A DNA stretch of 64,000 nucleotides from an uncultured delta proteobacterium (GTDB taxonomy: Bacteria; Desulfobacterota; Binatia; UBA9968). Position numbers and translations under genes: made by a program. Positions 757 through 42,364 of the stretch are shown here, in pieces (the first letter of the stretch is position 1; every line of letters starts with the position of its first letter). The stretch covers positions 32,001-96,000 of the forward strand of contig CAWJZV010000017.1 of NCBI GenBank assembly GCA_963847445.1, written 5' to 3'. The notes under the pieces are model-generated. The model was given only the letters and a program-made list of their open reading frames with translations. It was not told the origin of the DNA and searched no databases.

Positions 757-885
757 CGTCCTTTTGGTCGAAAGGATCGATGGTTGTGCCGAGCGTTCTT
801 TTATCTCCATATGTGATGCGCCGGTAATCCGCATCCAATTGAAAACGGCGCTTTCGCTCCCGCTCCGGTGTGGCATCGATAGTGT
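757..885 (+). promoter_or_regulatory. enhancer + sigma54 promoter cassette copy 1 (degenerate)
   Basis: CGTC-CTTTTG-GTCG-AAAGGAT-CGAT at 757; TGGCATCGATAGTGT at 871 (GT instead of GC at -12). Confidence 0.55.
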
Positions 886-959
886 CGATAGTGCCATAGT
901 GCAGTAGATTGATGACGTAGGATACGAAATCAGCAAACAGCAAACGAGGAGAAACGATT

Positions 960-1310
960 ATGGTTGGATCATCAATGAACAAATCGCCGATGCTTTTACT
1001 GGTCGGCACTCTTATGGTCGCCGGATGCGCTGGCGGATCACTGACAACCCGTGAAAAGGGCGCCGGGATCGGTGCTGTCGGCGGCGCGGTTGCGGGCGGA
1101 CTCATTGGCGCCGCAGTCGGCCATCCAGGCGCCGGGGCGGCGATAGGTGGTGGTTTGGGCTTGGGCGCGGGTGTTTTGGTGGGTGACCAGATGCAGGGCC
1201 AAGGAAACCAGAACTCCACGCAAGACGAGAATATCCGGCAAAACCAACTGGAAATAGATCGTCAGCAAAGGGAGCTTGAGCGGCTGCGAAGAGAGCGCGC
1301 AGAGTATTAA
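960..1310 (+). CDS. glycine-zipper lipoprotein
   Basis: lipobox VAGC, GxxxG zipper, coiled-coil tail, GAGGAG RBS. Confidence 0.85.
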   Translation: MVGSSMNKSPMLLLVGTLMVAGCAGGSLTTREKGAGIGAVGGAVAGGLIGAAVGHPGAGAAIGGGLGLGAGVLVGDQMQGQGNQNSTQDENIRQNQLEIDRQQRELERLRRERAEY

Positions 1311-1519
1311 AGATTTCAGCCGATCCTCAATATCAATGGGAGACTACGATAGGCACGATATGACTATGCTGTCGGTGCATGATCCATCGGTTACGAGACC
1401 ACGGACCTGAACGGCGGCGCCAACTTGCCGATCGTAGCACCACAATAAGAATTTAGCGGCTCATTGCTATCGGCGCCTGTCAGGGCGCTCTCCCTGTATT
1501 ATCGGGTTTTTTACCGGCG

Positions 1520-2668
1520 ATGGAAGTACAGACTCATAGTGACGATACGTCAGAGGTTTCACTCGAGACTGAGGGTGATGCCACGCTCGTCGTGCAACTG
1601 TCAGGCGCCTGGCGACTGCAAAAGAGCGCCGCCTCTGCCGGCCAGGTGCAAAAAGCGCTCGAGAGTTCGCATATTCGCAGGGTTCGCTTCGAGGCAAAAG
1701 CTCTCTCATCTTGGGACAGCAGCATCCTGATGTTTTTGATGAAAGTGATCGAGCTCTGCCGCCAGCAGGACATAGTCACCGAGCGCGAAGGATTGCCGGA
1801 CGGCATTCGCCGTCTGCTTGAACTCGCTGAGATAGCACCGGAGCAGGAAGGCGCCAGACCGGCGGCGGATGCGCAGTCTTTTTTGGCACAGGTCGGTACC
1901 ACCTCGACGGGGTTTTACCTCTCTTTGTCAGAGATGCTGCACTTTCTCGGCGAGGTGACGTTGGCGTTCGTCAAGCTGGTCAGGATGCGGGCGCGCTACC
2001 GGAGCGCCGATCTATTTCTAATTATCCAAGAATGCGGCCCGCAAGCGCTGCCGATCGTCACGCTCATCAGCTTTTTAGTAGGCGTTATCATGGCATTTGT
2101 CGGCGCTGTTCAGCTTCAGCAATTCGGCGCCCAGCTCTATGTGGCGGACCTCGTCGGCATCGCCGTCGTCCGCGATATGGGCGCCATGATGACCGGGATC
2201 ATCATGGCGGGCCGGACCGGCGCCGCGTTCGCAGCCAAGCTCGGCACCATGAAGGTGACTCAGGAAATCGACGCATTGATCACGCTGGGATTCTCACCGC
2301 TGGAATTTTTGGTGTTGCCGCGCGTGATCGCGCTGTGCCTGATGATGCCTTTGTTGTGTCTGTACTCCGACCTGCTGGGAATCCTGGGCGGCGCCGCGGT
2401 GGGGCTGTGGATGCTCGACCTTTCGTGGACCACCTATTACCACCAAACGGTAAATGCGATCAGCCTAACGGCGCTGTTCGGCGGCGTCTTTAAAAGCGTG
2501 ACTTACGGCGTGCTGATCGCTCTTTCGGGATGTCTGCGCGGCATCCAGTGTGGTGGCAGCGCTTCGGCTGTTGGCGAGGCCGCGACTTCCGCCGTGGTCA
2601 CGAGCATCGTCTTCATCGTCGCGGCTTGCGGCGCTTTGTCCGTGATATTTTATATCATTGGGGTTTGA
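1520..2668 (+). CDS. mlaE: MlaE-family ABC permease with N-terminal STAS-like domain
   Basis: RDMGAMMTGIIMAGRTGAAFAAKLGTMKVTQEIDAL motif; SSWDSS STAS-like segment. Confidence 0.92.
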   Translation: MEVQTHSDDTSEVSLETEGDATLVVQLSGAWRLQKSAASAGQVQKALESSHIRRVRFEAKALSSWDSSILMFLMKVIELCRQQDIVTEREGLPDGIRRLLELAEIAPEQEGARPAADAQSFLAQVGTTSTGFYLSLSEMLHFLGEVTLAFVKLVRMRARYRSADLFLIIQECGPQALPIVTLISFLVGVIMAFVGAVQLQQFGAQLYVADLVGIAVVRDMGAMMTGIIMAGRTGAAFAAKLGTMKVTQEIDALITLGFSPLEFLVLPRVIALCLMMPLLCLYSDLLGILGGAAVGLWMLDLSWTTYYHQTVNAISLTALFGGVFKSVTYGVLIALSGCLRGIQCGGSASAVGEAATSAVVTSIVFIVAACGALSVIFYIIGV

Positions 2669-2669
2669 C

Positions 2670-3458
2670 ATGAAGAGTGAAAGTCCAAACGAAATCGCCG
2701 CCGAAGCGCAAATTACCGTGCGCAATCTTACCCTGGCCTATGGCTCCTTCGTCTTGATGCGCGATCTCAACTTTACGGTTAAGCGGGGAGACGTGTTCAT
2801 CATCATGGGCGCTAGCGGCTGTGGCAAGAGCACGTTGCTGCGCAACATGATCGGTCTGATCGAACCGACGGAGGGAGAGATTTTCTACGATAAGGCGAAT
2901 TTTACCCGCGCCGATGCGGAGGCGCGGCGGAGCTTTTTTCGCCGCTTCGGCGTCTTGTATCAAAGCGGTGGTCTTTGGAGTTCCTTGACTCTGGCCGAAA
3001 ACGTCGCGCTGCCGCTGGAAGAATACACCGATCTAAGTCCGGTCGAGATCCGCGAGATCGCGACTTTCAAGCTTGCCCTGGTCGGCCTTAGCGGATTTGA
3101 AGATTATTACCCGTCGCAGATCAGCGGCGGCATGCAGAAACGTCTGGGATTGGCCCGCGCCATCGCGCTCGACCCCGAGGTGCTGTTCTTTGATGAGCCT
3201 TCGGCAGGGCTCGATCCCATCAGTTCGCGCCGGCTCGACGACTTGATCTTGGCTTTGCGCGATAGCATGGGCGCGACGGTGGTTGCAGTAACCCACGAGT
3301 TGCCAAGTATTTTTGCCATCGGCAATAACAGTATTTTTCTCGATGCTGAAAGCAAGACCGCGATCGCGAGCGGCGACCCCAAGGAGCTGCTCGCCCACAG
3401 TCAGAACGCCAAGGTGCGAGAATTTCTCACTCGCGGAGAAGGGCGGCCTGGTGAGTAA
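2670..3458 (+). CDS. mlaF: MlaF-family ABC ATPase
   Basis: Walker A GASGCGKS, signature ISGGMQKR, FFDEPSAGLDP. Confidence 0.93.
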   Translation: MKSESPNEIAAEAQITVRNLTLAYGSFVLMRDLNFTVKRGDVFIIMGASGCGKSTLLRNMIGLIEPTEGEIFYDKANFTRADAEARRSFFRRFGVLYQSGGLWSSLTLAENVALPLEEYTDLSPVEIREIATFKLALVGLSGFEDYYPSQISGGMQKRLGLARAIALDPEVLFFDEPSAGLDPISSRRLDDLILALRDSMGATVVAVTHELPSIFAIGNNSIFLDAESKTAIASGDPKELLAHSQNAKVREFLTRGEGRPGE

Positions 3459-4455
3459 AAAAGCTAATCCGACACTCATCGGAGCCTTCGTGGTCGGCGC
3501 CATCGTTTTGGTTGTTGGCGCGGTCGCGATCATTGGCTCGGGACGGCTGTTCCGCAAAACCCACGAGTTTGTGCTCTACTTCGAAGGCTCGGTAAGCGGC
3601 CTAAGAGAAGGCGCTCCGGTGAAGTACAAGGGCGTCGAAATCGGTTCCATTACCAATATCCTGCTGCAACTCGATGAGCCTGCGGAGGTCAACCGAATTC
3701 CGGTAATTATCAAACTCGATGCCGATAAGGTCAGCGGCCGAGAAGTCGGCGGCAGTCTGACAGACCCGGCCGGGCTCAAGGCAGCAATTGACCGGGGACT
3801 GCGCGGGCAATTGCAGACGGAGAGTATCGTTACCGGTGTGCTGTTCGTGGCGCTCGATCTCGTTCCTGATAGCCCGGCAAAGTTCGTTCAGCCGCCAGGC
3901 TCCCGGTACCAGGAAATCCCCACCATCACGACGACGCTGCAAAAAGCGCAAGATATCCTCGGCCAGCTGCTTACCAAGTTCGATGACGTTGATTTCAAAG
4001 CGCTGCTGACCTCCAGTGCCGACGCAGTTAAGACTCTAGGCGACCTGGTAAAAAACAAAGACCTGCAAGAAGCCTTTGCCGGGGTCAATCGGTTAGTCAA
4101 TATGCCGGAGTTGCATGCGTCCATCCGCTCGCTTGATCAAACCGTGGTTAAAATCAGCCAAGCCGCGGACGGTGTGCAAAAGGTTGCCGGCAGTCTTGAT
4201 CGCAGCGTGGCCACGCTCTCGGTCGATTTGAAAGAGACCCTGACCGGCGTGCGTGACGCGGTCAAGCAGATCCAGGCCACCGTGGCGAACGTAGATGGCT
4301 TCGTCGACCCTAACTCGCCGACCTCTTATGAATTGACCAAGGCTTTGAAAGAGCTTTCCGGCGCGGCACGGTCGCTCAGATTAATGGCCGATTTTCTCGA
4401 ACGAAATCCTCGGGCACTCTTGTTCGGTAGACCGGAAAGCGAGAAGAAACCATGA
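3451..4455 (+). CDS. mlaD: MlaD/MCE-domain protein
   Basis: N-terminal TM, SVSGLREGAPVKYKGVEIG MCE motif, helical tail ending LERNPRALLFG; GTG start overlapping mlaF. Confidence 0.9.
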   Translation: MSKKANPTLIGAFVVGAIVLVVGAVAIIGSGRLFRKTHEFVLYFEGSVSGLREGAPVKYKGVEIGSITNILLQLDEPAEVNRIPVIIKLDADKVSGREVGGSLTDPAGLKAAIDRGLRGQLQTESIVTGVLFVALDLVPDSPAKFVQPPGSRYQEIPTITTTLQKAQDILGQLLTKFDDVDFKALLTSSADAVKTLGDLVKNKDLQEAFAGVNRLVNMPELHASIRSLDQTVVKISQAADGVQKVAGSLDRSVATLSVDLKETLTGVRDAVKQIQATVANVDGFVDPNSPTSYELTKALKELSGAARSLRLMADFLERNPRALLFGRPESEKKP

Positions 4456-5084
4456 GCGGGCGGGTGACACAGGTGCTGGCGATCGTCGCTGTGTGGGTTT
4501 GGTTCGGTGGTTGTGCCGCCTTTACCCCGCGAGCCGATCCGTCGAGTTTTTATATCCTTGGGTCCCTCCCCGAGGCGGACTTCGCGGCAGACAAGAACAC
4601 AGCCGGCATCAAAGCCAATTTTTCCGTAGGACTTGGCCCGATTGAATTACCCGGTTACCTAGACCGCCAACAGATCGCCACACGCACGTCGACGAATCGC
4701 TTGAGCTATTCGGAGACCGATCGTTGGGCCGCGCCGCTGAGCGAAAGCTTCAGCCGGGTTTTGGCGCAAAACATTGCGCAGCTCCTCACCCCCGCGCAAT
4801 TGAGCCAATTCCCCTGGCAGAGTAACGACACACCGGATTATCAGGTGAAGATCGAGGTGCTCCAATTCGAGGCCGACAGCAATCAGCAGGCTTGGCTGAG
4901 GGCGCGCTGGAGCGTGATCGGCAGAAACAAAAAGATTCTGATCAGCCAAAGATCGCAATTGAGTCGGCGCGCTGGATCGCCAGCCACCGAAGATTTCGTC
5001 AAGGCGTTGAGCGAGACCCTCGGGGACCTGAGCCGTGAGATAGTAAAGACTTTGCAGACTTTCGCGAAGCAGGAGAAATCCTAG
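4452..5084 (+). CDS. PqiC-like ABC auxiliary lipoprotein
   Basis: lipobox FGGC; GPIELPGYLDRQQI and DRWAAPL motifs. Confidence 0.88.
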   Translation: MSGRVTQVLAIVAVWVWFGGCAAFTPRADPSSFYILGSLPEADFAADKNTAGIKANFSVGLGPIELPGYLDRQQIATRTSTNRLSYSETDRWAAPLSESFSRVLAQNIAQLLTPAQLSQFPWQSNDTPDYQVKIEVLQFEADSNQQAWLRARWSVIGRNKKILISQRSQLSRRAGSPATEDFVKALSETLGDLSREIVKTLQTFAKQEKS

Positions 5085-7561: not shown

Positions 7562-7683
7562 CGACCATTTGGTCGAAGCTCTCGACGCTTGTGACGAGCC
7601 GCAACTGCTCCATCGTGACAGCCTGAATAAATCTAAGGCAAATCCCGTGTGTTTCGCACTGGCGTGTCTGGCACACAACCTGC
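7562..7683 (+). promoter_or_regulatory. enhancer + sigma54 promoter cassette copy 2
   Basis: CGAC-CATTTG-GTCG-AAGCTCT-CGAC-GCTTG-TGACG; TGGCACACAACCTGC at 7669. Confidence 0.8.
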
Positions 7684-7792: not shown

Positions 7793-7933
7793 ATGAATTG
7801 TCCGCATTGCCAAAAAGAAGTTGTGCCTGAGTTTTACTGCATAAACTGTGGCTACGTACCACCCAGGATGCACGACCCCGAACCGATTAGTGGCAGCGAA
7901 CTTGAGATCCGCTTGAAACTCATTGAACGGTAA
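7793..7933 (+). CDS. 46-aa zinc-ribbon microprotein
   Basis: MNCPHC...YCINCG, two CxxC; GGGG RBS-like site; downstream of cassette 2. Confidence 0.55.
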   Translation: MNCPHCQKEVVPEFYCINCGYVPPRMHDPEPISGSELEIRLKLIER

Positions 7934-8028
7934 GGCAATAAGCGCGGTCTCCGTGCTGTCTCTGAGTAATGTTATGGGCGTCTGGCTCACCGGTAGATCC
8001 GATCACGCGAAAGAAAGGAATGACTGAC

Positions 8029-8103
8029 ATGAACAATCTGTTTTACATAGTGGGTGTAATTGTGGTGGTGGTTTTCGTTGCCGGGTTTTTAGGGCTCAGG
8101 TAA
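8029..8103 (+). CDS. 24-aa single-TM microprotein MNNLFYIVGVIVVVVFVAGFLGLR
   Basis: AAGGA RBS; paralog at 35142 with similar leader. Confidence 0.75.
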   Translation: MNNLFYIVGVIVVVVFVAGFLGLR

Positions 8104-8907: not shown

Positions 8908-8937
8908 TCAATTGGCGACCGTGAGGAATAAAACCAA

Positions 8938-9132
8938 ATGGAACGAATTCACAAGAAAAATGAAATCGTCGGCAACTCCGGCAAGAGTTTTGGCGAAGAC
9001 AGCCAATATCCCGTGGCGAAGGCTAGCGAGTCACAACCCCCTATAGACTGGTTCAAAATGGCCGAGCAGTCCATGCTGTTGTCCCGATTGCTGACAAATC
9101 AAAGAGGAAGATTAAATGGAACGAACTTATAA
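8938..9132 (+). pseudogene. degenerate dodecin duplicate
   Basis: MERIHKKNEIVGNSGKSFGE...IDWF parallels the intact dodecin downstream, then diverges. Confidence 0.6.
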
Positions 9133-9331
9133 GAAAATTGAAATCGTCGGCATCTCTGAAACCAGTTTTGGCGAGGCCACGCAAAACGCCGTGGCCAAGG
9201 CCTGTCAGTCACTGCGCCATGTGGACTGGTTCGAAGTGACGGAAATGCGCGGGCTGGTTGAAAAGGACAAAGTCAAAGAATTTCAGGTCACCGTCAAGAT
9301 CGGGTTTCGGCTTGAAGATCAGCCGGCTTGA
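9116..9331 (+). CDS. dodecin (flavin-binding)
   Basis: YKKIEIVGIS..SF..A..NAV, WFEV, FQVTVKIGFRL. Confidence 0.92.
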   Translation: MERTYKKIEIVGISETSFGEATQNAVAKACQSLRHVDWFEVTEMRGLVEKDKVKEFQVTVKIGFRLEDQPA

Positions 9332-9369
9332 GCCCTAACGCGCCACAGCCAGGGGCAGAGGGGATTCTA

Positions 9370-9591
9370 ATGTCGGAGAGAAACGAGACGTTTGTCGAAC
9401 GCTGCCGTGCGGCGATCGTCACGATTGCTGATTCGGCGGAGCTGGAACGGTATCTACGCGCAGCGGTGGCCGAGGAGTTTCCGCTGGTCAAGCCGGGCTT
9501 TAGCGCGAGCGAGCCAATGCCGATGTTACCACAGGCTCTCCGTGCATTACCTGAAGAAACTCTTCCTGGAGGAAATTATGCCGCAGATTAA
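9370..9591 (+). CDS. small hypothetical protein
   Basis: GAGGGG RBS and ATG; fills gap between dodecin and mlaC. Confidence 0.4.
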   Translation: MSERNETFVERCRAAIVTIADSAELERYLRAAVAEEFPLVKPGFSASEPMPMLPQALRALPEETLPGGNYAAD

Positions 9592-10359: not shown

Positions 10360-10482
10360 CGACCCTTTGGTCGAAGCTCTCGACGCTGGCGTCGTGGCTG
10401 CGCGCCGATTCACCGCGATACCTGTCTTAATGTTTGAGGAAAGTCGCCTTGGTCTGGCGCCAAGATGCGGCACAACAGTTGC
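10360..10482 (+). promoter_or_regulatory. enhancer + sigma54 promoter cassette copy 3
   Basis: CGAC-CCTTTG-GTCG-AAGCTCT-CGAC; CGGCACAACAGTTGC at 10468. Confidence 0.82.
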
Positions 10483-29758: not shown

Positions 29759-29799
29759 TCAATCTCAATTACAGCACAGACTAAAGAAGGAGAGTTTTT

Positions 29800-29880
29800 A
29801 TGGATACTCTACTGATCGTTCTTCTCGTGGTGTTTTTAGTCGGTGGCGGGGGCTGGGGATATTCTCGTTGGCGCCGGTAG
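29800..29880 (+). CDS. 26-aa microprotein MDTLLIVLLVVFLVGGGGWGYSRWRR
   Basis: AAGGAG RBS; near-identical paralog at 34677. Confidence 0.8.
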   Translation: MDTLLIVLLVVFLVGGGGWGYSRWRR

Positions 29881-30029
29881 CAACCGTTGCCAACCCCGAC
29901 CCGATCGAGGATCGGGCGAGATTTGAATCGTTTCAATTTTGCTACACCGGCTGTGAAGCCGTTTCCATGCGGTCACGGCCGAGTGGCGAATTTCACAGGC
30001 TTAATCCCAACCTGTAAGAAGGATTTTGT

Positions 30030-31689: not shown

Positions 31690-34284
31690 ATGGCCTTAGA
31701 ATCTTACCGCAAGAAGCGCAATTTCAAGACTACCCCTGAACCAGCGGGCAGGATTAAAAAGCCGAAAAGCGGGGATCTCGCATTCGTAGTTCAAAAACAC
31801 GCCGCTAGCCGTCTGCATTACGACTTCAGATTGGAGCTTAACGGCGTGCTGCTGAGCTGGGCGGTGCCGAAAGGCCCTAGTCTAGATCCAAATGACAAAC
31901 GTCTGGCAATGCACGTCGAAGATCATCCCATTGAATACGGCGGATTCGAGGGGATAATTCCGCCAAAGCAATATGGCTCAGGGACCGTCATGCTATGGGA
32001 TCGCGGAGTATGGATACCCAAGGAAGATTCGGTTGCAGGCTACAAAAAGGGCAAACTCAAGTTCGATCTCAAGGGAGAAAAACTCAGAGGCGGTTGGACC
32101 TTGGTAAAAAGTCACGGCGGCAGGTACGGCGCTAACGCGTGGTTATTGTTCAAAGAGGATGATGAGTACGCGCGCACAGGTCCGGAGGCGCGCGTTGTCG
32201 ATATCCGCCCCGATAGTGTGACGACGCAGCGCAGCCTGGAGCAGATCGCCGCCGATCCCGAGCGGGTCTGGCATTCCAATAGAACCGTTGCCGCAAACAT
32301 CAAAAAGGGAGCAGTCAAGAAGGCCAAAACGAAGATCGATCCATCGAAGATACCAGCCGCGCGAAAGGCGCTCCTGGCGAATTCCGTTGACGTTCAGCTT
32401 GCGACATCGGCAACAGTCGCGCCCGAAGGCGAGGGCTGGATCCACGAGATCAAGTATGACGGCTATCGAATGCTTTGCCGGTTAAACGCCGGAACGGTTC
32501 GAATCTATTCGCGAAATCGCAAAGAGTGGACTGCCGACTTTCCAAGCGTGGCGAGAGCGTTGGCCGATCTGCCCATAGAGTCGGCATGGATCGACGGCGA
32601 AGTTGTTAGCATGGACGCCAAAGGGCGCTTCGGCTTCCAAGCGCTTCAGCAAGCGCTGTCAACGGGCACCGGCGAAGTCGTCTACTACGCTTTCGACTTG
32701 TTGTATCTAAACGGCTACGACCTACGGGGTGTTACTTTGCAAGAACGAAAAACCCTCCTTAAGAGTCTTGTACCGGCGGCCGGTACCATTCGTTATAGCG
32801 ACGATTTCGCTGTGTCCGGCGCGGAGTTTTTTGCCCATGTCTGCAAACTGGGGCTCGAGGGAATGATTTCGAAGCGCGTCGATTCAACCTATCAGGGCAC
32901 GCGAGCGGCCACATGGCTCAAGGTAAAGTGCGCCCGTCGGCAGGAAATGGTCATCGGTGGATTCACGGATCCCGAGGGTTCGCGGCAAGGCTTCGGTGCG
33001 CTGTTGCTGGGCGTCTATGACGCCCAAGGCAATCTGCGTTATTCCGGCAAGGTCGGCACCGGCTTCAATGATGCCGTGCTGGTAACGTTGCGCCGCGACC
33101 TCGAAAAATTGGTTCGAGACAAGCCCGCTTTCATAAACCCACCCCGCGGCGCCGAGGCTCGCCGTGCCCATTGGGTAACGCCCGAGCTGGTCGCCGAAGT
33201 CACGTTCACCGAGTGGACTGACGACGGAACTCTGCGTCATGCATCTTTCCAGGGGTTGCGCAAAGATAAGCGAGCGCGCGACGTAGTGCGGGAAGAGCCA
33301 TCCCCCACCCCCAGCATCGCTCAAAGCAATTCTCAGTCGCCAGATAAATCATCACGCAAGACGAAGCCATCTCCGGCAAAGGGCGATAAAAATACCATTG
33401 CAGGAATTAAAATCTCTCACCCTGACAAGCTGCTTTACCCGGAAGCCGAAATTAGCAAACGTGATCTTGCGCTCTATTACGAAGCGATTGGCGAGTGGAT
33501 CGTCCCGCATTTGCGCAATCGCCCCTTGACGTTAGTGAGATGCCCCGACGGCTGGAACAAGGAGTGTTTTTATCAGAAGCATGCCGCTGCCGGTGTTGAT
33601 CAGGCGATCGAACGAGTGACGGTCCAGGACAGCGACGGTCCGGCGTTGTATATGATGGCCAACTCGGTGCGCGCTGTGGTCGCGGTGCTCCAAATGGGGA
33701 CGCTGGAACTTCATCCTTGGGGCGCGCGCACACCAAAGCTGGGATTTCCCGACCGCATGGTTTTTGATCTCGACCCTGACGAAGCACTCGGCTGGAAAGA
33801 AATTGCCAATGCAGCGACTGTTGTAAAAACCTTGCTCGATAACCTTGGCTTGCGGGGGTTTCTAAAGACCACCGGCGGGAAAGGTTTGCACGTCGTGGTG
33901 CCAATTCAACCCACTGTGCCGTGGGAGCACATCAAAGGCTTTACCAAGGCTATCGCCGAGTTACTGGCGCAAACATTTCCGGATCGATTTACCGCGAAGC
34001 TGCTTAAAGTCTCCCGCCATGGCAAGATATATATCGATTATTTGCGCAACGGCGAGGGCGCCACAGCGGTCGCGCCTTATTCGCTACGCGCTAAAGCCAA
34101 CGCGCCGGTGTCGACACCGATTAGCTGGCCGGAGCTCGCACGGGATTTACGCTTCGATTATTTCAACGTGAAGAATGTTCCGGCGCGGTTGAAGCGTTTA
34201 AAACGCGATCCCTGGGCGGAGTTTATGAAGACACGACAAACTGTCAGCAAGGCGATCATGAAAAAAGTCGGCTACACGATGTAG
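31690..34284 (+). CDS. ligD: DNA ligase D (phosphoesterase-ligase-polymerase)
   Basis: QKHAASRLHYDFRLE, HEIKYDGYR, EGMISKR, DRMVFDLDP, KTTGGKGLH. Confidence 0.96.
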   Translation: MALESYRKKRNFKTTPEPAGRIKKPKSGDLAFVVQKHAASRLHYDFRLELNGVLLSWAVPKGPSLDPNDKRLAMHVEDHPIEYGGFEGIIPPKQYGSGTVMLWDRGVWIPKEDSVAGYKKGKLKFDLKGEKLRGGWTLVKSHGGRYGANAWLLFKEDDEYARTGPEARVVDIRPDSVTTQRSLEQIAADPERVWHSNRTVAANIKKGAVKKAKTKIDPSKIPAARKALLANSVDVQLATSATVAPEGEGWIHEIKYDGYRMLCRLNAGTVRIYSRNRKEWTADFPSVARALADLPIESAWIDGEVVSMDAKGRFGFQALQQALSTGTGEVVYYAFDLLYLNGYDLRGVTLQERKTLLKSLVPAAGTIRYSDDFAVSGAEFFAHVCKLGLEGMISKRVDSTYQGTRAATWLKVKCARRQEMVIGGFTDPEGSRQGFGALLLGVYDAQGNLRYSGKVGTGFNDAVLVTLRRDLEKLVRDKPAFINPPRGAEARRAHWVTPELVAEVTFTEWTDDGTLRHASFQGLRKDKRARDVVREEPSPTPSIAQSNSQSPDKSSRKTKPSPAKGDKNTIAGIKISHPDKLLYPEAEISKRDLALYYEAIGEWIVPHLRNRPLTLVRCPDGWNKECFYQKHAAAGVDQAIERVTVQDSDGPALYMMANSVRAVVAVLQMGTLELHPWGARTPKLGFPDRMVFDLDPDEALGWKEIANAATVVKTLLDNLGLRGFLKTTGGKGLHVVVPIQPTVPWEHIKGFTKAIAELLAQTFPDRFTAKLLKVSRHGKIYIDYLRNGEGATAVAPYSLRAKANAPVSTPISWPELARDLRFDYFNVKNVPARLKRLKRDPWAEFMKTRQTVSKAIMKKVGYTM

Positions 34285-34507
34285 CGCCTCACGGGCTCAG
34301 GCAAGGCCGTATGGGCGGCTCCGATACGACAACGCTATGGTGGCAAGCCCGTGCACTCACCGAGAGACAAATTAACTAACGTATTTATCGGCAAAAGAAT
34401 CGGCGGATCCGACCGTCGAGCGTTATCGCCTGGGTAGTCGCTGATGAATGATCTCGCGGAATATAGCCTGCGATAGACTAATCGGTTCCGTCCTGCCAAA
34501 TCTGCTT

Positions 34508-34630
34508 CGACCCTTTGGTCGAGAGACTCGACGCTTTTAACGAGCCGTTTCTCGGTTTCGGTCTGACATCCTCAAGAAGCTCGCGGAAACACAGCCGTTC
34601 CCTCATCGGAACATCCGGCACAGATAATGC
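34508..34630 (+). promoter_or_regulatory. enhancer + sigma54 promoter cassette copy 8
   Basis: CGAC-CCTTTG-GTCG-AGAGACT-CGAC-GCTTT-TAACG; CGGCACAGATAATGC at 34616. Confidence 0.82.
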
Positions 34631-34676
34631 TTTTACAAAGGGGGAAGGACTAAACAGACAAACCAAAGGAGAGACT

Positions 34677-34757
34677 ATGGATACTATACTGATCGTTATA
34701 CTCGTGTTGTTTTTGGTCGGTGGCGGTGGCTGGGGATATTCTCGTTGGCGCCGGTAA
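34677..34757 (+). CDS. 26-aa microprotein MDTILIVILVLFLVGGGGWGYSRWRR
   Basis: AAGGAG RBS; paralog of 29800. Confidence 0.8.
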   Translation: MDTILIVILVLFLVGGGGWGYSRWRR

Positions 34758-34815
34758 CGCCCGCCGGAGCACAAATCACGTCGCAACAAACCGCGTCGAA
34801 AGATTCGGAGAATTT

Positions 34816-35043
34816 ATGACTAAGCAAATCGACATCCACGGCCAGCGCGTCCAACTCTATAGTCCAGACAAAGGCCGTACCTGGTCGAGCAGCCCGCAAT
34901 CAATCATTGCCTATCGACAAAGGAAGACGATGCTGCGCTTGGAATTACAAAAAAGGTTTGAACGCATCGACGACGGGATGCAGGACCCCGATCCTAATTA
35001 TATCGGCGCGCTTGAGGTCCCAAGGAACTTCATCGGACGGTGA
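34816..35043 (+). CDS. small unknown protein, paralog of 28416
   Basis: IHGQRVQLYSPDKGRTWSSSPQS; GGAG RBS. Confidence 0.7.
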   Translation: MTKQIDIHGQRVQLYSPDKGRTWSSSPQSIIAYRQRKTMLRLELQKRFERIDDGMQDPDPNYIGALEVPRNFIGR

Positions 35044-35141
35044 GACAACAGCTGAGATCCATTCGCATGCCTTCATTGAGGGATGTTATGCGCCTGAGCT
35101 CAATGGTGAATCCGATAACGCGCAAGAAAGGAGTAACTGAC

Positions 35142-35216
35142 ATGAATAGTATTATCTACGTTGTCGGTCTTGTGGTGGTGGTGCTCTTCGTTGCCGGCTA
35201 TCTCGGACTGAGGTAG
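35142..35216 (+). CDS. 24-aa microprotein MNSIIYVVGLVVVVLFVAGYLGLR
   Basis: AAGGAG RBS; paralog of 8029. Confidence 0.75.
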   Translation: MNSIIYVVGLVVVVLFVAGYLGLR

Positions 35217-35336
35217 CCCTGGCGCGTAGTTCAGGACTCCCCGAATATCTTTTTCAAACCTGTCTGAAGTCGGTCAGCAATCCTCGCGACTCAGCACAAG
35301 CGTCTGAAAGCCAAAAGAATAACTACAAATCAACTA

Positions 35337-35882
35337 ATGGAGGACAATCTAATGAACGAAGATGTTTTTGCCGGGCAATGGAAGCAAATGCGCGGCGAAC
35401 TTAAATCGTGGTGGAGCCAACTCGCCGATGATGAGTTGGACTTGATCGGCGGTCATAAAGACAAGCTGATCGGTTTAGTGCAGGAGAGATACGGCTATGC
35501 TCGCGAACATGCCGAGCAAGAGGTGGAGCGGCGCTTTAAGGAGTTTAGCGATAAAACGAGCGGGGCCGTCGCCAGCATCACGGCCAAAGCGCAGGAGTTC
35601 GGCGCGACGGCCGGGAACAAGGCGAATGATGCCGCCACCGTCGTTGGTGAAAAAATCGGATCCCTGGCTCATGTAATCCGGGAAAATGCCCCGCACGACG
35701 GCGCGGTGGCAACGGCGGCAACAGCGGTTGTGGACGGGCTGGAATCGGCGAGCTCTTACCTGCGCGAGAAAAAATTCGACCATCTGGCCAAAGATGTCAC
35801 GGACTTAGTCCGCACCTATCCGGTCCAATCTCTGCTGATCGGTATTGGTCTCGGCTATTTGCTGGCCCGGCGCCCGAGATAA
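35337..35882 (+). CDS. CsbD-family protein with DUF883-like tail anchor
   Basis: GQWKQMRGELKSWW..L.DDE..G..DKLIG; PVQSLLIGIGLGYLL. Confidence 0.85.
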   Translation: MEDNLMNEDVFAGQWKQMRGELKSWWSQLADDELDLIGGHKDKLIGLVQERYGYAREHAEQEVERRFKEFSDKTSGAVASITAKAQEFGATAGNKANDAATVVGEKIGSLAHVIRENAPHDGAVATAATAVVDGLESASSYLREKKFDHLAKDVTDLVRTYPVQSLLIGIGLGYLLARRPR

Positions 35883-35885
35883 GTC

Positions 35886-36305
35886 ATGGAAAACGGATCG
35901 CAATACCGCGCACAGGAAAGTTTCGTATCGTTGCTAGGCGGCATCGCTTACGATGCGAAGGAGTTACTGCTGCAAGAGGTGGCACTGACGAAACGCGAGC
36001 TGCAGTACGAGCTGCACAAAGCTAAAACCGCCGCGATCGCACTGGGGAGCGCAATCGGGATTATCGCCACCGGCGGGATATTACTGATGCTCGCGCTGGT
36101 TCACCTGCTCGACGCTTTTACAGTGGTGCCGCTCTGGGGGTGCTACGGGATCGTCGCGACTGTCCTCGTCGTCCTCGGCGCGGTGCTGCTCGTCGCGGCT
36201 AAAACTAAGGCAGAGGCACTAGAGGTGGTCCCTCAGCCAACAGTGGTGAGGATGAAGGAGAACGCACGATGGCTGACAAAGCAGACGACATCCGACAAGA
36301 GCTAG
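35886..36305 (+). CDS. holin-like (YqjE-type) two-TM protein
   Basis: LLLQEVAL.K.EL, two TMs, P..TV..MKENARW. Confidence 0.78.
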   Translation: MENGSQYRAQESFVSLLGGIAYDAKELLLQEVALTKRELQYELHKAKTAAIALGSAIGIIATGGILLMLALVHLLDAFTVVPLWGCYGIVATVLVVLGAVLLVAAKTKAEALEVVPQPTVVRMKENARWLTKQTTSDKS

Positions 36306-36790
36306 AAAAAGACCGTCAAGATATCGCGGCTACCCGTTCGGCGCTTACGGAGAAGCTGGGGGTCCTGGGCGACCGCGTTCAGGAGACCGTCGACGAGGTG
36401 AAGCAAACCTTCGATCTGCGTTATCAGGTGAAACAGCGACCGTGGCTCATGTTTGGCGGGTCACTGCTGGTGGGCTACGCGCTCGGTCGCCGCGGTGCGC
36501 CAAGAACCACAGCCGATAGGTCAAAGGCGCCGCCGTCTTCGAACGCGCAGCCGCAGAAAAGTATCGTGAGCGCAATCAGCACTCAGTTTACGGACGAGCT
36601 TTCCACGATCAAAGGGGCAGCCTTTGGAGCGGTGATAAGCACGCTCTGGGCGATGGCCAAACAGATGCTGCCGCAACCGGTCCGACAAATCGATAGCGCG
36701 ATCGCCAAGCCCGGCGTTCAACCAATCGATAGCTCACGGCAAATCACCGATCGAGGTAGCCCTTCGATGACCAACGGGCACGATCCGTAG
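36269..36790 (+). CDS. DUF3618-like protein
   Basis: DIAATRSALTEKL..L; QVKQRPWLMFGGSLLVG. Confidence 0.72.
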   Translation: MADKADDIRQELEKDRQDIAATRSALTEKLGVLGDRVQETVDEVKQTFDLRYQVKQRPWLMFGGSLLVGYALGRRGAPRTTADRSKAPPSSNAQPQKSIVSAISTQFTDELSTIKGAAFGAVISTLWAMAKQMLPQPVRQIDSAIAKPGVQPIDSSRQITDRGSPSMTNGHDP

Positions 36791-36850
36791 ATAAGGAGGT
36801 CACACGAAGTCAGCAGCTTCGGGAAAACTTAGCAATGAAAATACCAACCA

Positions 36851-37261
36851 ATGAAAGAAAGAGGATTTATGAGAATAGCTCTAGGTTTAGTTCTCGCGTT
36901 TCTAGTCGTCGGGTGTTCCAAAACTGAGCAGTCTAATACGGAACAGCCCAGCCAACCCGCCGTTGTCGCGGCTGATAATAGCGGCCGTAACGAGCGAGAC
37001 CGTAACGACGCGACCAAGACCGCAGGCGATCAAGCTGAGAATGAGGCGGATCGGACGATCTCACAGAACATCCGGCAGGCTATTGGCAAGGATGACTCGG
37101 TCTCGACGAACGGCAAGAACGCCAAGATCATCACGGTCGATGGCATCGTAACGCTACGCGGACCGGTGCAGAGTGAGAAAGAGAAAACTAACATCGGCGC
37201 CAAAGCCCAGCAAATCGCCGGTGTAAAAAGCGTCGATAACCAATTGGAGATTGCCAACTAA
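36851..37261 (+). CDS. BON-domain lipoprotein
   Basis: lipobox VVGC; GIVTLRGPV...GVKSVDNQL. Confidence 0.88.
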   Translation: MKERGFMRIALGLVLAFLVVGCSKTEQSNTEQPSQPAVVAADNSGRNERDRNDATKTAGDQAENEADRTISQNIRQAIGKDDSVSTNGKNAKIITVDGIVTLRGPVQSEKEKTNIGAKAQQIAGVKSVDNQLEIAN

Positions 37262-37277
37262 TTTAAAGGAGATGACC

Positions 37278-37832
37278 ATGTCTAAATCAGTTATTTGCTT
37301 ATGTGACAATGAATTCCAAACCAATATGATAGTCGAAAAGCTCAAGGGTGCGGGCTTTTCCAACAACGATATCTCGGTCTTGTTCCCCGATAAGTCGGGA
37401 ACCAAGGATTTTGCCCACGAACAGAATACCAAGCTACCGGAGGGTGCCGCCACCGGAGCAGGCACCGGCGGGGTGCTAGGCGCTGGTTTGGGCTGGCTAG
37501 TGGGTATTGGCGCCTTGGCGATTCCCGGCGTCGGCCCCTTTATTGCCGCGGGTCCGATCATGGCTGCTCTAGCAGGTGCCGGTGTCGGCGCAGCCGTCGG
37601 CGGGTTGAGCGGAGCGTTAGTCGGCATGGGCATCCCCGAGTACGAGGCCAAACGCTACGAGGGAAAAATCAAAGAGGGCAGCATTCTGATCTCGGTGCAC
37701 TCGGAAGATAGCGATGAAGTTAAGCGCGCTAAGGAGATTTTTGAAAAATCCGGCGCGCACGACATTTCGTCTACCGGAGAAAGCAGCGTGCCCAAAGCGG
37801 ACGATGAAAGCCGGGAACACCGCGTGTCGTAG
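37278..37832 (+). CDS. general stress protein (17M/DUF3341-like) with glycine zipper
   Basis: DISVLFPDK, GIGALAIPGVGPFIAAGP, MGIPEYEAKRYE. Confidence 0.82.
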   Translation: MSKSVICLCDNEFQTNMIVEKLKGAGFSNNDISVLFPDKSGTKDFAHEQNTKLPEGAATGAGTGGVLGAGLGWLVGIGALAIPGVGPFIAAGPIMAALAGAGVGAAVGGLSGALVGMGIPEYEAKRYEGKIKEGSILISVHSEDSDEVKRAKEIFEKSGAHDISSTGESSVPKADDESREHRVS

Positions 37833-37899
37833 ACCGCCGCATGCAGGTTGCGGGTCCGTCGTCAGATGGGCGGACTCGCAACGTTTTTAGGAGAGAATT

Positions 37900-38022
37900 A
37901 TGAAGATTTTACCGAAGATCATTGCAAACGAGACGGGCGCGATAGGTTGGGTCCTATTATGGGCGATCGGCATTCCCATACCGATATTACTCGTGTTGTT
38001 CATGGTGCGCGGTTGTACGTAA
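37900..38022 (+). CDS. 40-aa membrane microprotein
   Basis: MKILPKIIANETGAIGWVLLWAIGIPIPILLVLFMVRGCT; AGGAG RBS. Confidence 0.7.
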   Translation: MKILPKIIANETGAIGWVLLWAIGIPIPILLVLFMVRGCT

Positions 38023-38232
38023 TCATCAATTATGCGCGTCGATCGCGGGCCTTGCTCGTAGCGAAATTAAAATTGACTGACAACTCACGAACATTGCGCA
38101 TTCTAGTCGCCTTCTGCGCGACAAATACACCGCTTCATCGCCGGTGTTCGGTCGGGTATCCTCGCGACAAATGTGCGTAAGCGCGAAAGCGATACGCTGA
38201 GGGACGGCCGTTTTCATTAGACGAATCTCCCC

Positions 38233-39300
38233 ATGTTCAAAGTCACGCTGATCGCTCTTGGCACGTTCTTCATTGCTGTCACGGTTTTACCTTTGATACG
38301 CTCAGGTAACGCCTGGATCCGTATGTTGGATTTTCCACGCGCGCACATTGCCATCGGCGGCGTTTGCGTCGCAGTGCTATACGGTCTCTTTGTCTGGGAC
38401 ATTAAAAACGGCGCGGAGAGCGTGATGCTTGCGGGGTTGATCGCCTGCGTGCTGTACCAGGGGTACAAGATGTCTCCCTATACATTTCTCGCCTCTCGGC
38501 AGGTGCTGTCGAGCAACCGGCACAGCTCCGACGCCACTTTTAGTTTGCTCGTTTCTAACGTTCTGATGGAAAATCGCAACGCGACAAAATATTTGGAAAT
38601 TGTCAGAGAAGCGGACCCGGATATACTATTTGCCGCTGAAACCGACCGGTGGTGGACAGAGCAACTTGGCGTCCTCGATCAAACGTACCGCTACACAGTC
38701 AACTACCCGTTGGCAAACACCTATGGGATGATCTTGCGCTCCCGGCTAAAATTGATCGACCCGCAGATCAAGTTCCTCATCGAAGACGATGTGCCCTCCA
38801 TCCATACCGGTGTCGAGTTAACGTCAGGGGATCGTATCGTGTTGCACTGCTTACACCCGAGGCCTCCTCAGCCGGTGCAGGGTCAGGATTCCACCGAGCG
38901 GGATGCGGAACTGCTGGTTGTCGCGCGAGCAGTCGCAGAGTCGGACGAACCGGCTCTCGTCGCCGGAGACTTAAACGACGTCGCCTGGTCACACACGACG
39001 AAGCTGTTCCAAAAGATCAGCGGTCTCCTTGACCCGCGCATCGGCCGCGGCATGTACAATACTTTCAACGCCAAGAATCCTCTGTTCAGGTGGCCCCTCG
39101 ATCACGTTTTTCACTCCAGTCATTTCAGGTTGGTCAAACTCGAGCGGCTTCCGTTCTTTGGCTCCGATCATTTTTCCATCTACATCACGCTGAGCTATGA
39201 ACCGGAAGCGAAAGCGCAGCAGCCGGAGCCTGCCGCCGACAAGGAGGAGCGAGAGGAAGCGGCGGAGAAGATCGGCAAAGCGAAAAGCGAGGCGGTGTAG
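38233..39300 (+). CDS. membrane-anchored endonuclease/exonuclease/phosphatase family protein
   Basis: three N-terminal TMs; AGDLND, PLDHVF, GSDH. Confidence 0.9.
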   Translation: MFKVTLIALGTFFIAVTVLPLIRSGNAWIRMLDFPRAHIAIGGVCVAVLYGLFVWDIKNGAESVMLAGLIACVLYQGYKMSPYTFLASRQVLSSNRHSSDATFSLLVSNVLMENRNATKYLEIVREADPDILFAAETDRWWTEQLGVLDQTYRYTVNYPLANTYGMILRSRLKLIDPQIKFLIEDDVPSIHTGVELTSGDRIVLHCLHPRPPQPVQGQDSTERDAELLVVARAVAESDEPALVAGDLNDVAWSHTTKLFQKISGLLDPRIGRGMYNTFNAKNPLFRWPLDHVFHSSHFRLVKLERLPFFGSDHFSIYITLSYEPEAKAQQPEPAADKEEREEAAEKIGKAKSEAV

Positions 39301-39375
39301 TCTTCAGTCGCGGATACGGGGTGCGAGTTCCCAAAGTTATGAATCTATTTGAGCCTTTAATCATTCAAAGAAATA

Positions 39376-40365
39376 TTGCAGAACAGTCCCAGCCAAAGAG
39401 GGTCGACATCGGCCCAACCCATCGATAACGTTGTGACCAAGCCTTGCGCCCAGCCATTAGATAGCCCTGAGCAGAACCTCAGAAAAACCCTTAACTTAAA
39501 AGGGCTGGGGTTGCTCACGCGGGATGCTTTTTTTCAATGGATTGACGTTAACCCGTTTCAAATGGGCGCTGCCTTGGCTTACTTCACGCTATTCTCCATG
39601 GCGCCGGTTCTGTTGATCGCGATCGCAGTCGCCGGCTTAGTGTTCGGCCGCGAAGCTTCCCAAAACCAGATTATCGGCTTGATTGAGGATGTCGTTGGAG
39701 CACAGACCGCGGGGGCGATCCTGGCGATACTTGAAAGCGCCGGTCAAACGCCGGACTCCGGTTTTTTCGCCACCGTTATCGGCATGATTTTCTTGTTGCT
39801 AGGGGCCGCCGGCGTGGTCGGACAGCTGCAAGATTCGCTTAATACAATCTGGCAAGTCGTGCCCAAGGCCGGTCGCGGGATAATCGGCTTTTTGCAGGAT
39901 CGCTTGGTCTCCTATTCCATGGTCTTGAGTGTCGGCTTTTTGTTGCTCGTCTCATTGGTCGTCAGCGCGCTCTTAAGCGCGGTGTCGCAAATATTAGGCG
40001 GTTTTCTGCCGATCGAAGCGGCTACGGCGCACATACTGGATATCGTCATCTCGTTTGCGTTTATCACATTGCTCTTCGCGGTAATCTACAAATTCGTGCC
40101 TAACGTCCGGATCGCTTGGGGAGATGTCTGGATCGGCGCGGCGACGGCCGCATTGCTATTTTCGCTGGGCAAATTCTTGATCGGCTTTTATCTAGGCCAT
40201 AGCACGGTCACATCGATCTATGGCGCCGCCGGATCACTCGTTACACTCTTGTTGTGGGTCTACTATTCATCATTGATATTTTTCTTCGGCGCCGAGTTGA
40301 ACCAAGTCTACGCGCACCGGTACGGTTCGAAAATTACCTCCGCGGAAAACGCTCAAAAATCATGA
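39376..40365 (+). CDS. YihY/BrkB family membrane protein
   Basis: GAALAYFTLFSMAP, IYGAAGSL..LLLWVYYS..IFFFGAE. Confidence 0.92.
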   Translation: MQNSPSQRGSTSAQPIDNVVTKPCAQPLDSPEQNLRKTLNLKGLGLLTRDAFFQWIDVNPFQMGAALAYFTLFSMAPVLLIAIAVAGLVFGREASQNQIIGLIEDVVGAQTAGAILAILESAGQTPDSGFFATVIGMIFLLLGAAGVVGQLQDSLNTIWQVVPKAGRGIIGFLQDRLVSYSMVLSVGFLLLVSLVVSALLSAVSQILGGFLPIEAATAHILDIVISFAFITLLFAVIYKFVPNVRIAWGDVWIGAATAALLFSLGKFLIGFYLGHSTVTSIYGAAGSLVTLLLWVYYSSLIFFFGAELNQVYAHRYGSKITSAENAQKS

Positions 40366-42109
40366 CTAATTCACCCGGCGAGTCAATCCCGGCAGTAGCG
40401 GTCGCAACATCGCGTTACTACCCACTCTGATCGGCATACGATCTTCGTTCTGATAGTTGCGTCGCTCTATTGGGCGCAAGCCGTCTTGATTCCGGTTGCC
40501 TTGGCGATGTTGCTGACCTTTTTGTTAAGTCCGGTTGCCGCCGCCCTTGAACGGATAGGACTTGGGCGGATTTCATCGGTCATCCTTGTCGCAGTTCTGA
40601 CTTTTTCCCTCCTCGGCGGCATCGGCTGGATCGTCACTCTTCAATTTGGCAGCCTGGCTAACGAGCTGCCCCAATACACCGGTAACTTGAGACAAAAAAT
40701 TGCCGACGTGCGCGGCGCGGCTAAGGGCGGTGCCTTAGAGAAGGTCCAACAGACCGTTGAGGCAGTGACGAGCGAGATTCAGCAAGGTGACGAGCCCGCT
40801 AAGGGCAAAGATCAGCGCCCTCCTGTCATCGTGGAGTCGATGGAATCCTTCACGTTTTGGCCCGTTCCATCGGCTATCGGGCCGATGTTGGAGCGGTTCG
40901 CCAGCGCCGGCCTCGTGATTGTGCTGGTGATCTTCATGCTCAGTCAGCGCGAAGACTTGCGCAACCGTTTGATCCGTCTCGTGGGATATGGCCGGTTGAC
41001 GTTTACGACCAGCGCGCTGGAAGAAGCCGGGCAGCGCATAAGCCGCTATTTGCTCATGCAGACAATCATCAACTCTTCTTTCGGACTAGCGGTGACTGTG
41101 GCGCTCTATATGATCGGTGTTCCCTACGCGGTGCTTTGGGGCTTTTTCGCGGCGGTGTTGCGTTTCATCCCGTATGTCGGGCCCTTCGCGGCTGCAATCG
41201 TGCCGAGCGCTCTTAGCTTGGCTGTTTTTGACGGTTGGCTATGGCCGATCCTGGTTGTCGGGATTTTCGTGGCTCTGGAACTCACCTGTAATATGGTTTT
41301 GGAGCCATTGCTTTATGCCGAGAGCGCCGGCGTTTCGGGGGTTGGACTTTTGGTCGCAGTCGCGTTCTGGACTTGGCTTTGGGGGCCGGTTGGTCTTGTC
41401 CTGGCCACCCCGCTCACGGTCTGTGTCGTCGTGTTCAGCAAGTACATCCCAAGGATGGATTTTATCGCGGTGCTGATGAGCGATCAGCCAGCCATGGAAT
41501 CAAACATCAGCTACTACCAGCGACTGTTAGCTCTGGACCAAGCTGAGGCGACGGAGATTGTCGAAGAACATCTCAAGACCCATGAACAGGAGCAAATTTT
41601 CGATGCGGTGCTGATTCCGGCGCTGAACTATGCTCGGAGAGACCGCGATCTCGGTAGGCTGACGGACGATGGCGAGCAATTCGTTTTCCGAGCGACAAGG
41701 GAGATCCTCGATGACCTGAAGAAATTGCCGCCCGACAGCTCGTCGGCGCCATCAGACCCAGAAAAAATCGCGCTGGACGGTAATGATTTGGCTGCCACGC
41801 TGGCGAAAGTCCGCGTCTTGGCGTGTCCTGCTCGCGACGAAGCCGACGAACTAGCTCTCGACATGTTTCGCCATCTGCTTGAGCCCACGAGATATGCAGT
41901 GGAAATTATGTCCGACTCTGATGCTTGCTTCCGAAGTCGTTGACCTTATTGGTGATCGCCGTCCAGCAATGATTCTTATCGTTACCGTCTCACCCGGCGG
42001 ACTAGGCCAGACACGTTATCTCTGCAAGCGCGCGAGCAAGCTTCCGGAGCAGTATCCGCGCGCCGGCACCGACAGGGTGGCACGACAATGCGCCGTCTTG
42101 TGCGGCTAA
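40362..42109 (+). CDS. AI-2E family transporter with cytoplasmic tail (indels at both ends)
   Basis: LRFIPYVGP, FWTWLWGPVGLVLATPLT, YYQRLLA; ATGA overlap with YihY gene. Confidence 0.88.
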
Positions 42110-42241
42110 TTGCTCGAACATAATTCACATCGCTTCGAGCAGCACGGTTCCGTCAAGGATCAGAAATTTTATGATCTCTCACGCATTTATCATTTAATTT
42201 TATCAATCTGTTTTATTTCAGCCCGCACTTGATATCTAGGT

Positions 42242-42364
42242 CGACCATTTGGTCGTGTGCGTCGACCCGTTTGACGAGTCGTTTGTGGATTTCCCTCCGC
42301 GAGCGTCTGGAAGCTAGCGGAATCACTGCCTTTCCCACTTGGCAAACTCCGGCACAAATAGTGC
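42242..42364 (+). promoter_or_regulatory. enhancer + sigma54 promoter cassette copy 9
   Basis: CGAC-CATTTG-GTCG-TGTGCGT-CGAC-CCGTT-TGACG; CGGCACAAATAGTGC at 42350. Confidence 0.8.

Follow-up and report, generated by a model that had tools for sequence, protein, structure and literature searches.

Enhancer-promoter cassettes and the genes behind them

The window analysed here (64,000 bp; positions 32,001–96,000 of contig CAWJZV010000017.1, hereafter C17) comes from the genome assembly of an uncultured delta proteobacterium of the Binatia (G000, GCA_963847445.1; 7.19 Mb, 57% G+C, 48 contigs, 91.8% complete). It carries nine copies of a 40-bp enhancer-like element, each followed at a nearly constant distance by a promoter of the sigma-54 (−24/−12) type; enhancer and promoter together are called a cassette below. 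Taken together, the sequence evidence makes it likely that these cassettes serve as cis-acting elements of a single sigma-54 regulon, and that its driver is a two-component system encoded in the same island behind one of the cassettes. The nine motif starts, the nine positions of the −24 GG and the nine spacings reported in the initial annotation were all reproduced, and its statement that the motif always lies on the + strand upstream of a gene holds for all copies. The features are as follows (window coordinates; open reading frame, ORF; aa, amino acids; spacing is counted from the enhancer start to the GG).

51–731, +, Crp/Fnr-family regulator, one of three island paralogues, downstream of the cassette at C17:31013
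757–796, +, enhancer copy 1, the most degenerate (CGTCC..., TCGATGG; 46.4 bits), GG at 872, spacing 115
872–895, +, sigma-54 promoter 1, interrupted by a duplication at 876–893
960–1310, +, Gly-zipper lipoprotein, first gene of cassette 1, followed by Mla-type transporter genes (1520–5084)
7562–7683, +, cassette 2 (enhancer 7562–7601, GG at 7670, spacing 108)
7793–8103, +, two small ORFs after cassette 2: a 46-aa protein with CxxC pairs, and a 27-aa membrane peptide (8020–8103) also found behind a cassette at the relatives' locus L172
10360–10482, +, cassette 3, ahead of the regulator operon (enhancer 10360–10399, GG at 10469, spacing 109)
10526–11518, +, secreted protein with an OmpA domain and a collagen-like Gly-X-Y stretch, opening the regulator operon
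11631–13367, +, sensor histidine kinase (HisKA, HATPase_c)
13368–14789, +, NtrC-family response regulator (REC, AAA+ with GAFTGA at residue 220, HTH_8)
23531–23655, +, cassette 4 (enhancer 23531–23570, GG at 23642, spacing 111), overlapping the 3′ end of a Crp-like ORF (22781–23599)
23693–24205, +, ferritin-like/rubrerythrin-like protein after cassette 4
24310–24432, +, cassette 5 (enhancer 24310–24349, GG at 24419, spacing 109)
24657–24875, +, Thivi_2564-family membrane protein after cassette 5, followed by a class A penicillin-binding protein (24932–27368) split over two overlapping frames
27880–27961, +, cassette 6, short form (enhancer 27880–27919, GG at 27948, spacing 68)
28006–28185, +, 59-aa membrane protein after cassette 6, no family match
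28261–28385, +, cassette 7 (enhancer 28261–28300, GG at 28372, spacing 111)
28416–28703, +, 95-aa protein of no known family after cassette 7, with a paralogue at 34816–35043 and a homologue behind a cassette at locus L174
29800–29880, +, third DUF3309 gene (26 aa), after a promoter at 29745; its DNA is 90% identical to 34676–34763
30030–30881, +, Ku, behind the third DUF3309 gene
30832–31683, +, MerR/TPR protein, between Ku and LigD
31690–34284, +, LigD, behind the MerR/TPR gene
34508–34630, +, cassette 8 (enhancer 34508–34547, GG at 34617, spacing 109)
34677–41943, +, co-directional genes after cassette 8, a predicted operon in the order DUF3309 (34677–34757), 75-aa protein, CsbD, holin-X-like, BON, YflT-like, EEP nuclease/phosphatase, BrkB-like, AI-2E transporter
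42242–42364, +, cassette 9 (enhancer 42242–42281, GG at 42351, spacing 109)
42411–42557, +, entericidin-family small lipoprotein after cassette 9

The island holds four DUF3309 genes. By their families, the genes behind the cassettes appear to form a set of general-stress types (CsbD, BON, YflT, ferritin-like, Gly-zipper, Ku/LigD), and such sets are placed under a general stress sigma factor in other bacteria.

Anatomy and spacing of the cassettes

The sequence CGACNNTTTRGTCG, allowing at most one mismatch, was found 10 times in the window, where 0.84 matches were expected; 100 shuffles never reached that number. Nine of these matches are the copies listed above; the tenth (8706) has neither a second dyad nor a promoter. 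An unguided repeat search of the window returned the same nine 40-nt copies as one family (D3, 70–100% identity). The consensus of 56 distinct enhancer sites, taken from the source genome and from relatives, reads CGACCnTTTGGTCGA-N5-TCGACGnTTT..CGAG, in which the CGAC and GTCG cores are near-invariant. The element consists of two 14-bp dyads, CGACC-N-TTT-GGTCG and CGACG-N-TTT-SRCG, whose centres lie 21 bp, or two helical turns, apart; each enhancer thus presents four half-sites of the CGWC type, spaced by about one helical turn, and the asymmetric TTT has the same orientation in the first and the second dyad.

The promoter downstream of the enhancers has the form GGCAC-N5-TGC and lies ~109 bp on. 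Among 50 distinct cassettes from this genome and relatives, the −24 GG follows the enhancer start at 109 bp in 24, 110 in 12, 108 in 6, 111 in 5, 107 in 2 and 115 in 1, so that 49 of the 50 fall within 107–111 bp, the exception being the duplicated promoter at 872. The string GGCA-N7-TGC fits eight of the nine window cassettes, two further copies to the left of the window and the promoter at 29745. Taken alone, it shows no enrichment in the window (14 matches, 11.7 expected); the signal lies in its fixed distance to the enhancer. Its genome-wide frequency is only 8.5e-5 per position, which corresponds to a chance of ~4e-4 per site in a five-position window, and its presence in such a window after nearly every enhancer is thus not accidental. 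The enrichment at a fixed distance that the initial annotation had proposed to look for is therefore present, and its assignment of a GG-N10-GC element to every copy stands for eight of the nine, the copy at 872 reading GG-N10-GT. Two short spacing variants were seen, of 68 bp (window 27880) and 98 bp (L113:4306). Because they fall short of 109 bp by 41 and 11 bp, about four turns and one turn of the helix, the promoter would keep its helix face relative to the enhancer in both.

The spacers had been described as differing between copies, with conservation specific to the motif. Most of the spacer has indeed diverged; what the description missed are weak A/T patches in phase with one another, namely AA at +69/70, GAAA at +79–82 and CTTT at +89–92 from the enhancer start, ~10–11 bp apart. 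They may represent an intrinsic bend or a site for HU or IHF, and three HU/IHF-family genes were found in the genome.

The copies might instead be a dispersed repeat that answers to no common regulator, derived either by duplication of a promoter module or from what is left of a mobile element. Three of the cassettes (C17:31013, 34508 and 42242) do resemble one another along their whole length, and there are paralogues among the downstream genes, the DNA of DUF3309 copies being 90% identical. Conservation is however limited to the enhancer of 40 bp, the −24/−12 element and three short patches in the spacer; orthologous genes of other genomes have this module in front of them, with diverged spacers; and no Rfam family matched in the window. 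Nor are the copies placed at random or at the ends of a mobile repeat: all of them point at gene starts on one strand, with no terminal repeats and no transposase. We regard this explanation as very improbable.

Distribution in the genome and in relatives

A 40-bp weight matrix was built from ten copies and scanned over the 7.19-Mb genome. It returned 11 sites (34–61 bits), all on the + strand of C17 between 28775 and 74242 (~46 kb); beyond these, the best score in the 7.19 Mb was 13.7 bits, and nothing comparable was found elsewhere. Two of the sites, at C17:28775 and C17:31013, lie to the left of the window; each is followed by a sigma-54 promoter, +110 or +109 from its start, and then by a DUF3309 gene. 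The count of nine copies in the initial annotation is thus correct for the window and a lower bound for the island, where these two cassettes and the enhancerless promoter at 29745 had been missed. The output of the island comprises at least 12 promoters within ~46 kb.

Orthologues of the island kinase (53–72% identity) were found in metagenome-assembled genomes (MAGs) labelled Candidatus Binatia, delta proteobacterium or Thermodesulfobacteriota. A cassette lies upstream of the kinase orthologue, 0.6–1.4 kb away and in the same orientation, in genome G019 and at loci L111, L112, L113, L118 and L121; at L111, L112, L113 and L117 it stands ~1.2 kb upstream of the kinase, ahead of the OmpA-like gene. 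At the distant loci L118 and L121 (kinase 53%, activator 71–73% identical) the weight matrix detected a variant tandem site, with a promoter at +110, that precedes the gene for a 132-aa secreted protein and then the kinase. This protein (L118:4440–4838; L121:9489–9887) has a Gly/Met/Pro-rich N-terminus, and the module at its C-terminus is similar to the N-terminal region of the OmpA-like protein in the window; its Metal_resist match is weak (E 0.0056). A ZraP-like identity for the first gene of the operon was rejected, as this match is under the cut-off and confined to the distant relatives.

For counts over 89 other genomes of the family, a strict motif (CGACNNTTTRGTCG-N7-CGAC) was used, filtered by eye from a looser list. 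Motif and kinase orthologue occurred together in 21 genomes, the motif alone in 4, the kinase alone in 17 and neither in 47, which gives 25 genomes with the strict motif and 64 where it was not found, and 38 with a kinase orthologue and 51 where none was found (G059 counts here solely among the 47 with neither). Where both were present, the motif stood 0.6–1.4 kb upstream of the kinase, in the same orientation, in 15 of the 21 genomes. Copies in the relatives are clustered and co-oriented (for example 6 in G015, 6 in G018, 8 in G066 and 8 in G067). The families behind them match those of the source genome: they precede the OmpA-like/kinase/activator operon and genes for DUF3309 proteins (26 and 49 aa), entericidin, Thivi_2564, a 24-aa peptide and a 74-aa protein; a cassette is also found upstream of a Crp-like regulator gene. 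Two genomes from another family of the same order have one cassette each, with the promoter at +110 or +111. In one of the relatives, G015, an enhancer scoring 52.5 bits has no sigma-54 promoter within 170 bp; it occurs twice with identical letters (L171:4439, L085:6) and may be an orphan or rearranged copy.

An exact-pattern scan of one genome per species (185,579 species) gave 113 matches, with a promoter at +106 to +111 in 56, none in 56 and one cut by a contig end. The 56 matches lacking a promoter come mostly from unrelated phyla and have no second dyad. Of those linked to a promoter, 54 lie in MAGs labelled delta proteobacterium, Deltaproteobacteria, Thermodesulfobacteriota or Candidatus Binatia, and the other two in Pyrinomonadaceae-labelled MAGs, on short contigs of 9.7 and 2.9 kb; no promoter-linked copy was found in a cultured isolate among these species. 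At kinase relatives from other phyla (L119, L120 and L149, with 43% identity; L146 and L165), the strict sigma-54 pattern was unmatched. With the complete activator as query, 80 loci came up, none above 55% identity and spread over many phyla; they are paralogues with a common AAA+ core, and the search was set aside as uninformative for the operator.

RNA evidence consists of assembled contigs from two runs of one study (X15 and X16) that are 90–99% alike to the window and so come from relatives. They cover cassette-driven genes at 28793–30116 and 34420–37700, with summed depths of 100–4000 against 0–5 across most of LigD. Such contigs can show neither start, strand nor level, and uncovered parts prove nothing; they were not counted as support. 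One X16 contig ends at 34669, 27 nt past the start predicted from the GC (~34642), in letters that we take to be sequencing adapter, and no conclusion was drawn from it.

Several further features of the window lie beside the cassettes. A 130-nt direct repeat (8936–9243; 75% identity, 178 bp apart) spans two small adjoining ORFs, and a MlaC-family gene (9392–10213) is directly downstream of it. Between the activator and the later cassettes lie a kinase/receiver hybrid (15057–15860, −), a KaiC-family ATPase (16944–18377, −) and a lone receiver (19226–19756, +), all without a cassette. A 447-aa ORF (47991–49334) contains glutamine-rich repeats and has no family match; its repeat families of 207 nt and 61 nt reach up to 15 copies. 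A Mutator-family transposase fragment (51825–52196, −) stands at the right edge of the co-directional block and may mark the boundary of the island. Beyond it, a non-ribosomal peptide synthetase region (52427–63999, −) is broken into many ORFs with condensation, AMP-binding and PP-binding pieces. This region and the split penicillin-binding protein carry frameshifts from assembly errors, or are pseudogenes.

The candidate activator and its proposed regulon

The genome encodes RpoN (Sigma54_DBD match of 212 bits in a 494-aa open frame, C9:43597–44070). The island activator has the domains of an NtrC-family protein (Response_reg, 4.5e-33; Sigma54_activat PF00158, 2.7e-72; HTH_8, 3.3e-14), and the kinase has a ~280-aa periplasmic domain between two membrane segments, with a weak sCache_3_2 match. 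The best NCBIfam matches are AtoC (526 bits, cut-off 714) and ZraR (440 bits, cut-off 760) for the activator and ZraS (245 bits, cut-off 479) for the kinase; since each score is under its equivalog cut-off, identity with any of the three was rejected. The likeness to the AtoSC and ZraSR systems of Escherichia coli extends to the same domain order of the activator (REC, AAA+ with GAFTGA, HTH_8) and to tandem dyad sites ~100 bp upstream of a sigma-54 promoter. The zraP-zraSR operon starts with a gene for a secreted protein, as does the regulator operon here. They differ in that one or two operons are controlled there, against at least 12 small-stress-protein promoters here, and in that the first gene here is OmpA/collagen-like rather than of the ZraP type (Metal_resist); the operators known for AtoC and ZraR also differ from that of the cassettes.

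The initial annotation had proposed that one enhancer-binding protein co-activates the island. This proposal gains support from the presence of rpoN, of an NtrC-family activator behind one of the cassettes, of a conserved position of the cassette before the regulator operon, of the 107–111 bp spacing and of orthologous genes with a cassette in relatives; the island activator is the probable binder. The enhancer might alternatively be bound by another activator encoded elsewhere, the island two-component system being merely one of its targets. The genome does offer candidates, with 36 Sigma54_activat matches (~25 full-length genes), and four relatives bear the motif with no kinase orthologue detected by the query used (G047, G049, G003, G092; 87–96% complete, two of them in >600 contigs). 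None of the ~25 activators is a close paralogue of the island activator, the next best being 41–48% identical overall and at most 49% in the helix-turn-helix (HTH). The HTH of the island activator (GVQTRAAELLG.SERALRYKL) is near-invariant across eight orthologue loci (seven distinct orthologues, L112 and L177 being letter-identical), and is thus conserved along with the half-site; all 11 sites of the genome surround the operon, with none elsewhere; and the position of a cassette before the kinase/activator operon is kept across genomes, distant ones included. We consider control by an activator from outside the island improbable.

The layout of the first dyad brings in another candidate. As its half-sites of five are separated by four (5-N4-5), typical of Crp/Fnr sites, Crp-like proteins were considered as binders: the CGACC-N4-GGTCG dyad could be the operator of the island Crp/Fnr regulators. 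These would co-activate or repress, and the sigma-54 activator would touch only a portion of the 40-bp element or sit at another site. Crp-like genes are always present in these islands; here there are three paralogues, each adjoining a cassette, and orthologues of 78–90% identity occur in six related islands. In the family survey, 21 of the 25 motif-bearing genomes have a Crp-like gene, the same number as have the kinase. Among the 64 genomes where the motif was not found, however, a Crp-like gene is present in 36 and the kinase in 17 (G062 and G005 enter the Crp counts only as rows with a Crp-like gene and no motif), and four genomes with the motif (G004, G069, G097 and G049) have no Crp-like match at 1e-60. 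The centre of the first dyad lies ~103 bp ahead of the −24 GG in a sigma-54 promoter, not near −41.5 or −61.5 of a sigma-70 promoter, and matches to sigma-70-like promoters were not enriched (8 against 8.7 and 13 against 10.8 expected). Moreover, a sigma-54 promoter cannot do without a site for its activator, and no second conserved element lies upstream. The Crp-like gene looks rather like a target, because it lies downstream of a cassette at six loci of relatives (L172, L175, L176, L170, L113 and L114), usually right after the 49-aa DUF3309 gene, and the Crp-like regulator at 51–731 is probably a second-tier regulator. Crp-type ownership of the dyad is in our judgement unlikely.

Besides the dyad layout and the four motif-bearing relatives with no kinase orthologue detected, several observations weigh against assigning the cassettes to the island two-component system. 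The promoter at 872 is disrupted as it stands: a perfect 9-bp tandem duplication (TCGATAGTG twice, 876–893) displaces the TGC by 9 bp, and removal of one unit restores GG-N10-GC and GGCA-N7-TGC. The orthologous cassette at L170:14285 has, unlike this one, a normal promoter at +109; the duplication may reflect a decaying promoter or an assembly slip. The sigma-54-type promoter at 29745–29758 (+, GGCACGGATCGTGC) has no canonical enhancer at −109 and would work, if at all, without one; a CGACC-N3-GGTCG dyad lies at 29720–29732, 12 bp upstream of its GG. Since terminator scans were not enriched (25 against 22.8 and 33 against 24.1 expected), the operon ends are guesses. Among the relatives, the two-by-two table overstates the association because the genomes are kin, and 17 genomes have a kinase orthologue, mostly 50–55% identical, with no strict motif. 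Kinase-bearing relatives of this kind can carry a variant operator, as seen in the two checked, L118 and L121.

With the island two-component system as the preferred regulator, the following course of events is proposed. The kinase (11631–13367), sensing the periplasm and presumably a stress signal, would phosphorylate the activator (13368–14789); the secreted OmpA-like protein, presumably made from the same transcript, may modulate the kinase or act as an accessory sensor. The activator would bind the tandem 14-bp dyads as two dimers, which would assemble an AAA+ ring and, by looping of the DNA, reach the sigma-54 holoenzyme ~109 bp downstream, probably aided by the phased A/T patches as an intrinsic bend or IHF/HU site; ATP hydrolysis would then open the promoter. 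Because one cassette (cassette 3) drives the activator's own operon, positive feedback on the activator is expected. The output would be small membrane and periplasmic stress proteins (DUF3309, entericidin, Gly-zipper, Thivi_2564, CsbD, BON, YflT, ferritin-like) and probably includes Ku/LigD and, as a second tier, a Crp-like regulator.

This gene content overlaps that of the RpoS, SigB and EcfG/PhyR regulons, of which the CsbD, BON (OsmY-like), entericidin, Gly-zipper, YflT, DUF3309, ferritin-like and Ku/LigD families are members. Those regulons are read by a sigma-70-family factor with its own promoter, whereas the promoters here are of the sigma-54 type and need a distant, ATP-driven activator. 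An RpoS equivalog was not found in the genome, the best match scoring 294 bits against a cut-off of 379. The nearest analogue in the literature is DVU3305 of Desulfovibrio vulgaris Hildenborough, a 'general stress' two-component sigma-54 activator that is reported to regulate its own operon and neighbouring stress-induced genes for membrane and hypothetical proteins, in a system that includes a Lon-protease response regulator and UspA-type targets (PMC3333781, PMC4641369). Because these components belong to the system there, and neither is seen behind the cassettes here, we treat DVU3305 as an analogue and not as the same regulon; a Lon gene of the present genome is found 16 kb further left, on the other strand, and has no cassette. 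Nla28, one of the autoregulated enhancer-binding proteins of Myxococcus xanthus, is reported to be an activator linked to starvation or stress with many direct sigma-54 targets, regulator genes included (PMC9765219). It differs in phylum, in half-site and in having developmental targets spread genome-wide as opposed to one packed island. Our literature searches joining Binatota with sigma-54 found nothing, and those on stress regulation in Binatia nothing relevant. The operator, which the initial annotation did not recognise, was likewise not found described, its half-site letters bringing up eukaryotic C/EBP only.

The operator, the content of the regulon, the way it is tightly packed into a single island and the natural series of spacings are new, and the class of mechanism is textbook. 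No cultured member is among the genomes carrying the module; the analysis gives this lineage a precise, testable operator, a candidate regulator and a defined set of target genes for small proteins mostly of unknown function. The spacing series (68, 98 and 107–111 bp) is unusually clean and bears on the helical-phase rule of enhancer action. The regulon would also show that a gene set of the RpoS/SigB/EcfG type can be wired to sigma-54. We raise, tentatively and as something we rather doubt, the broader possibility that the general stress or dormancy response of this lineage is run by sigma-54 and a single periplasm-sensing two-component activator, in place of RpoS, SigB or EcfG, in a form that fires a dozen phase-locked enhancer/promoter modules packed in one island, amplifies itself and hands on to Crp-like regulators. 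If this were true, the sigma-54 stress wiring would be a fourth architecture of the bacterial general stress response.

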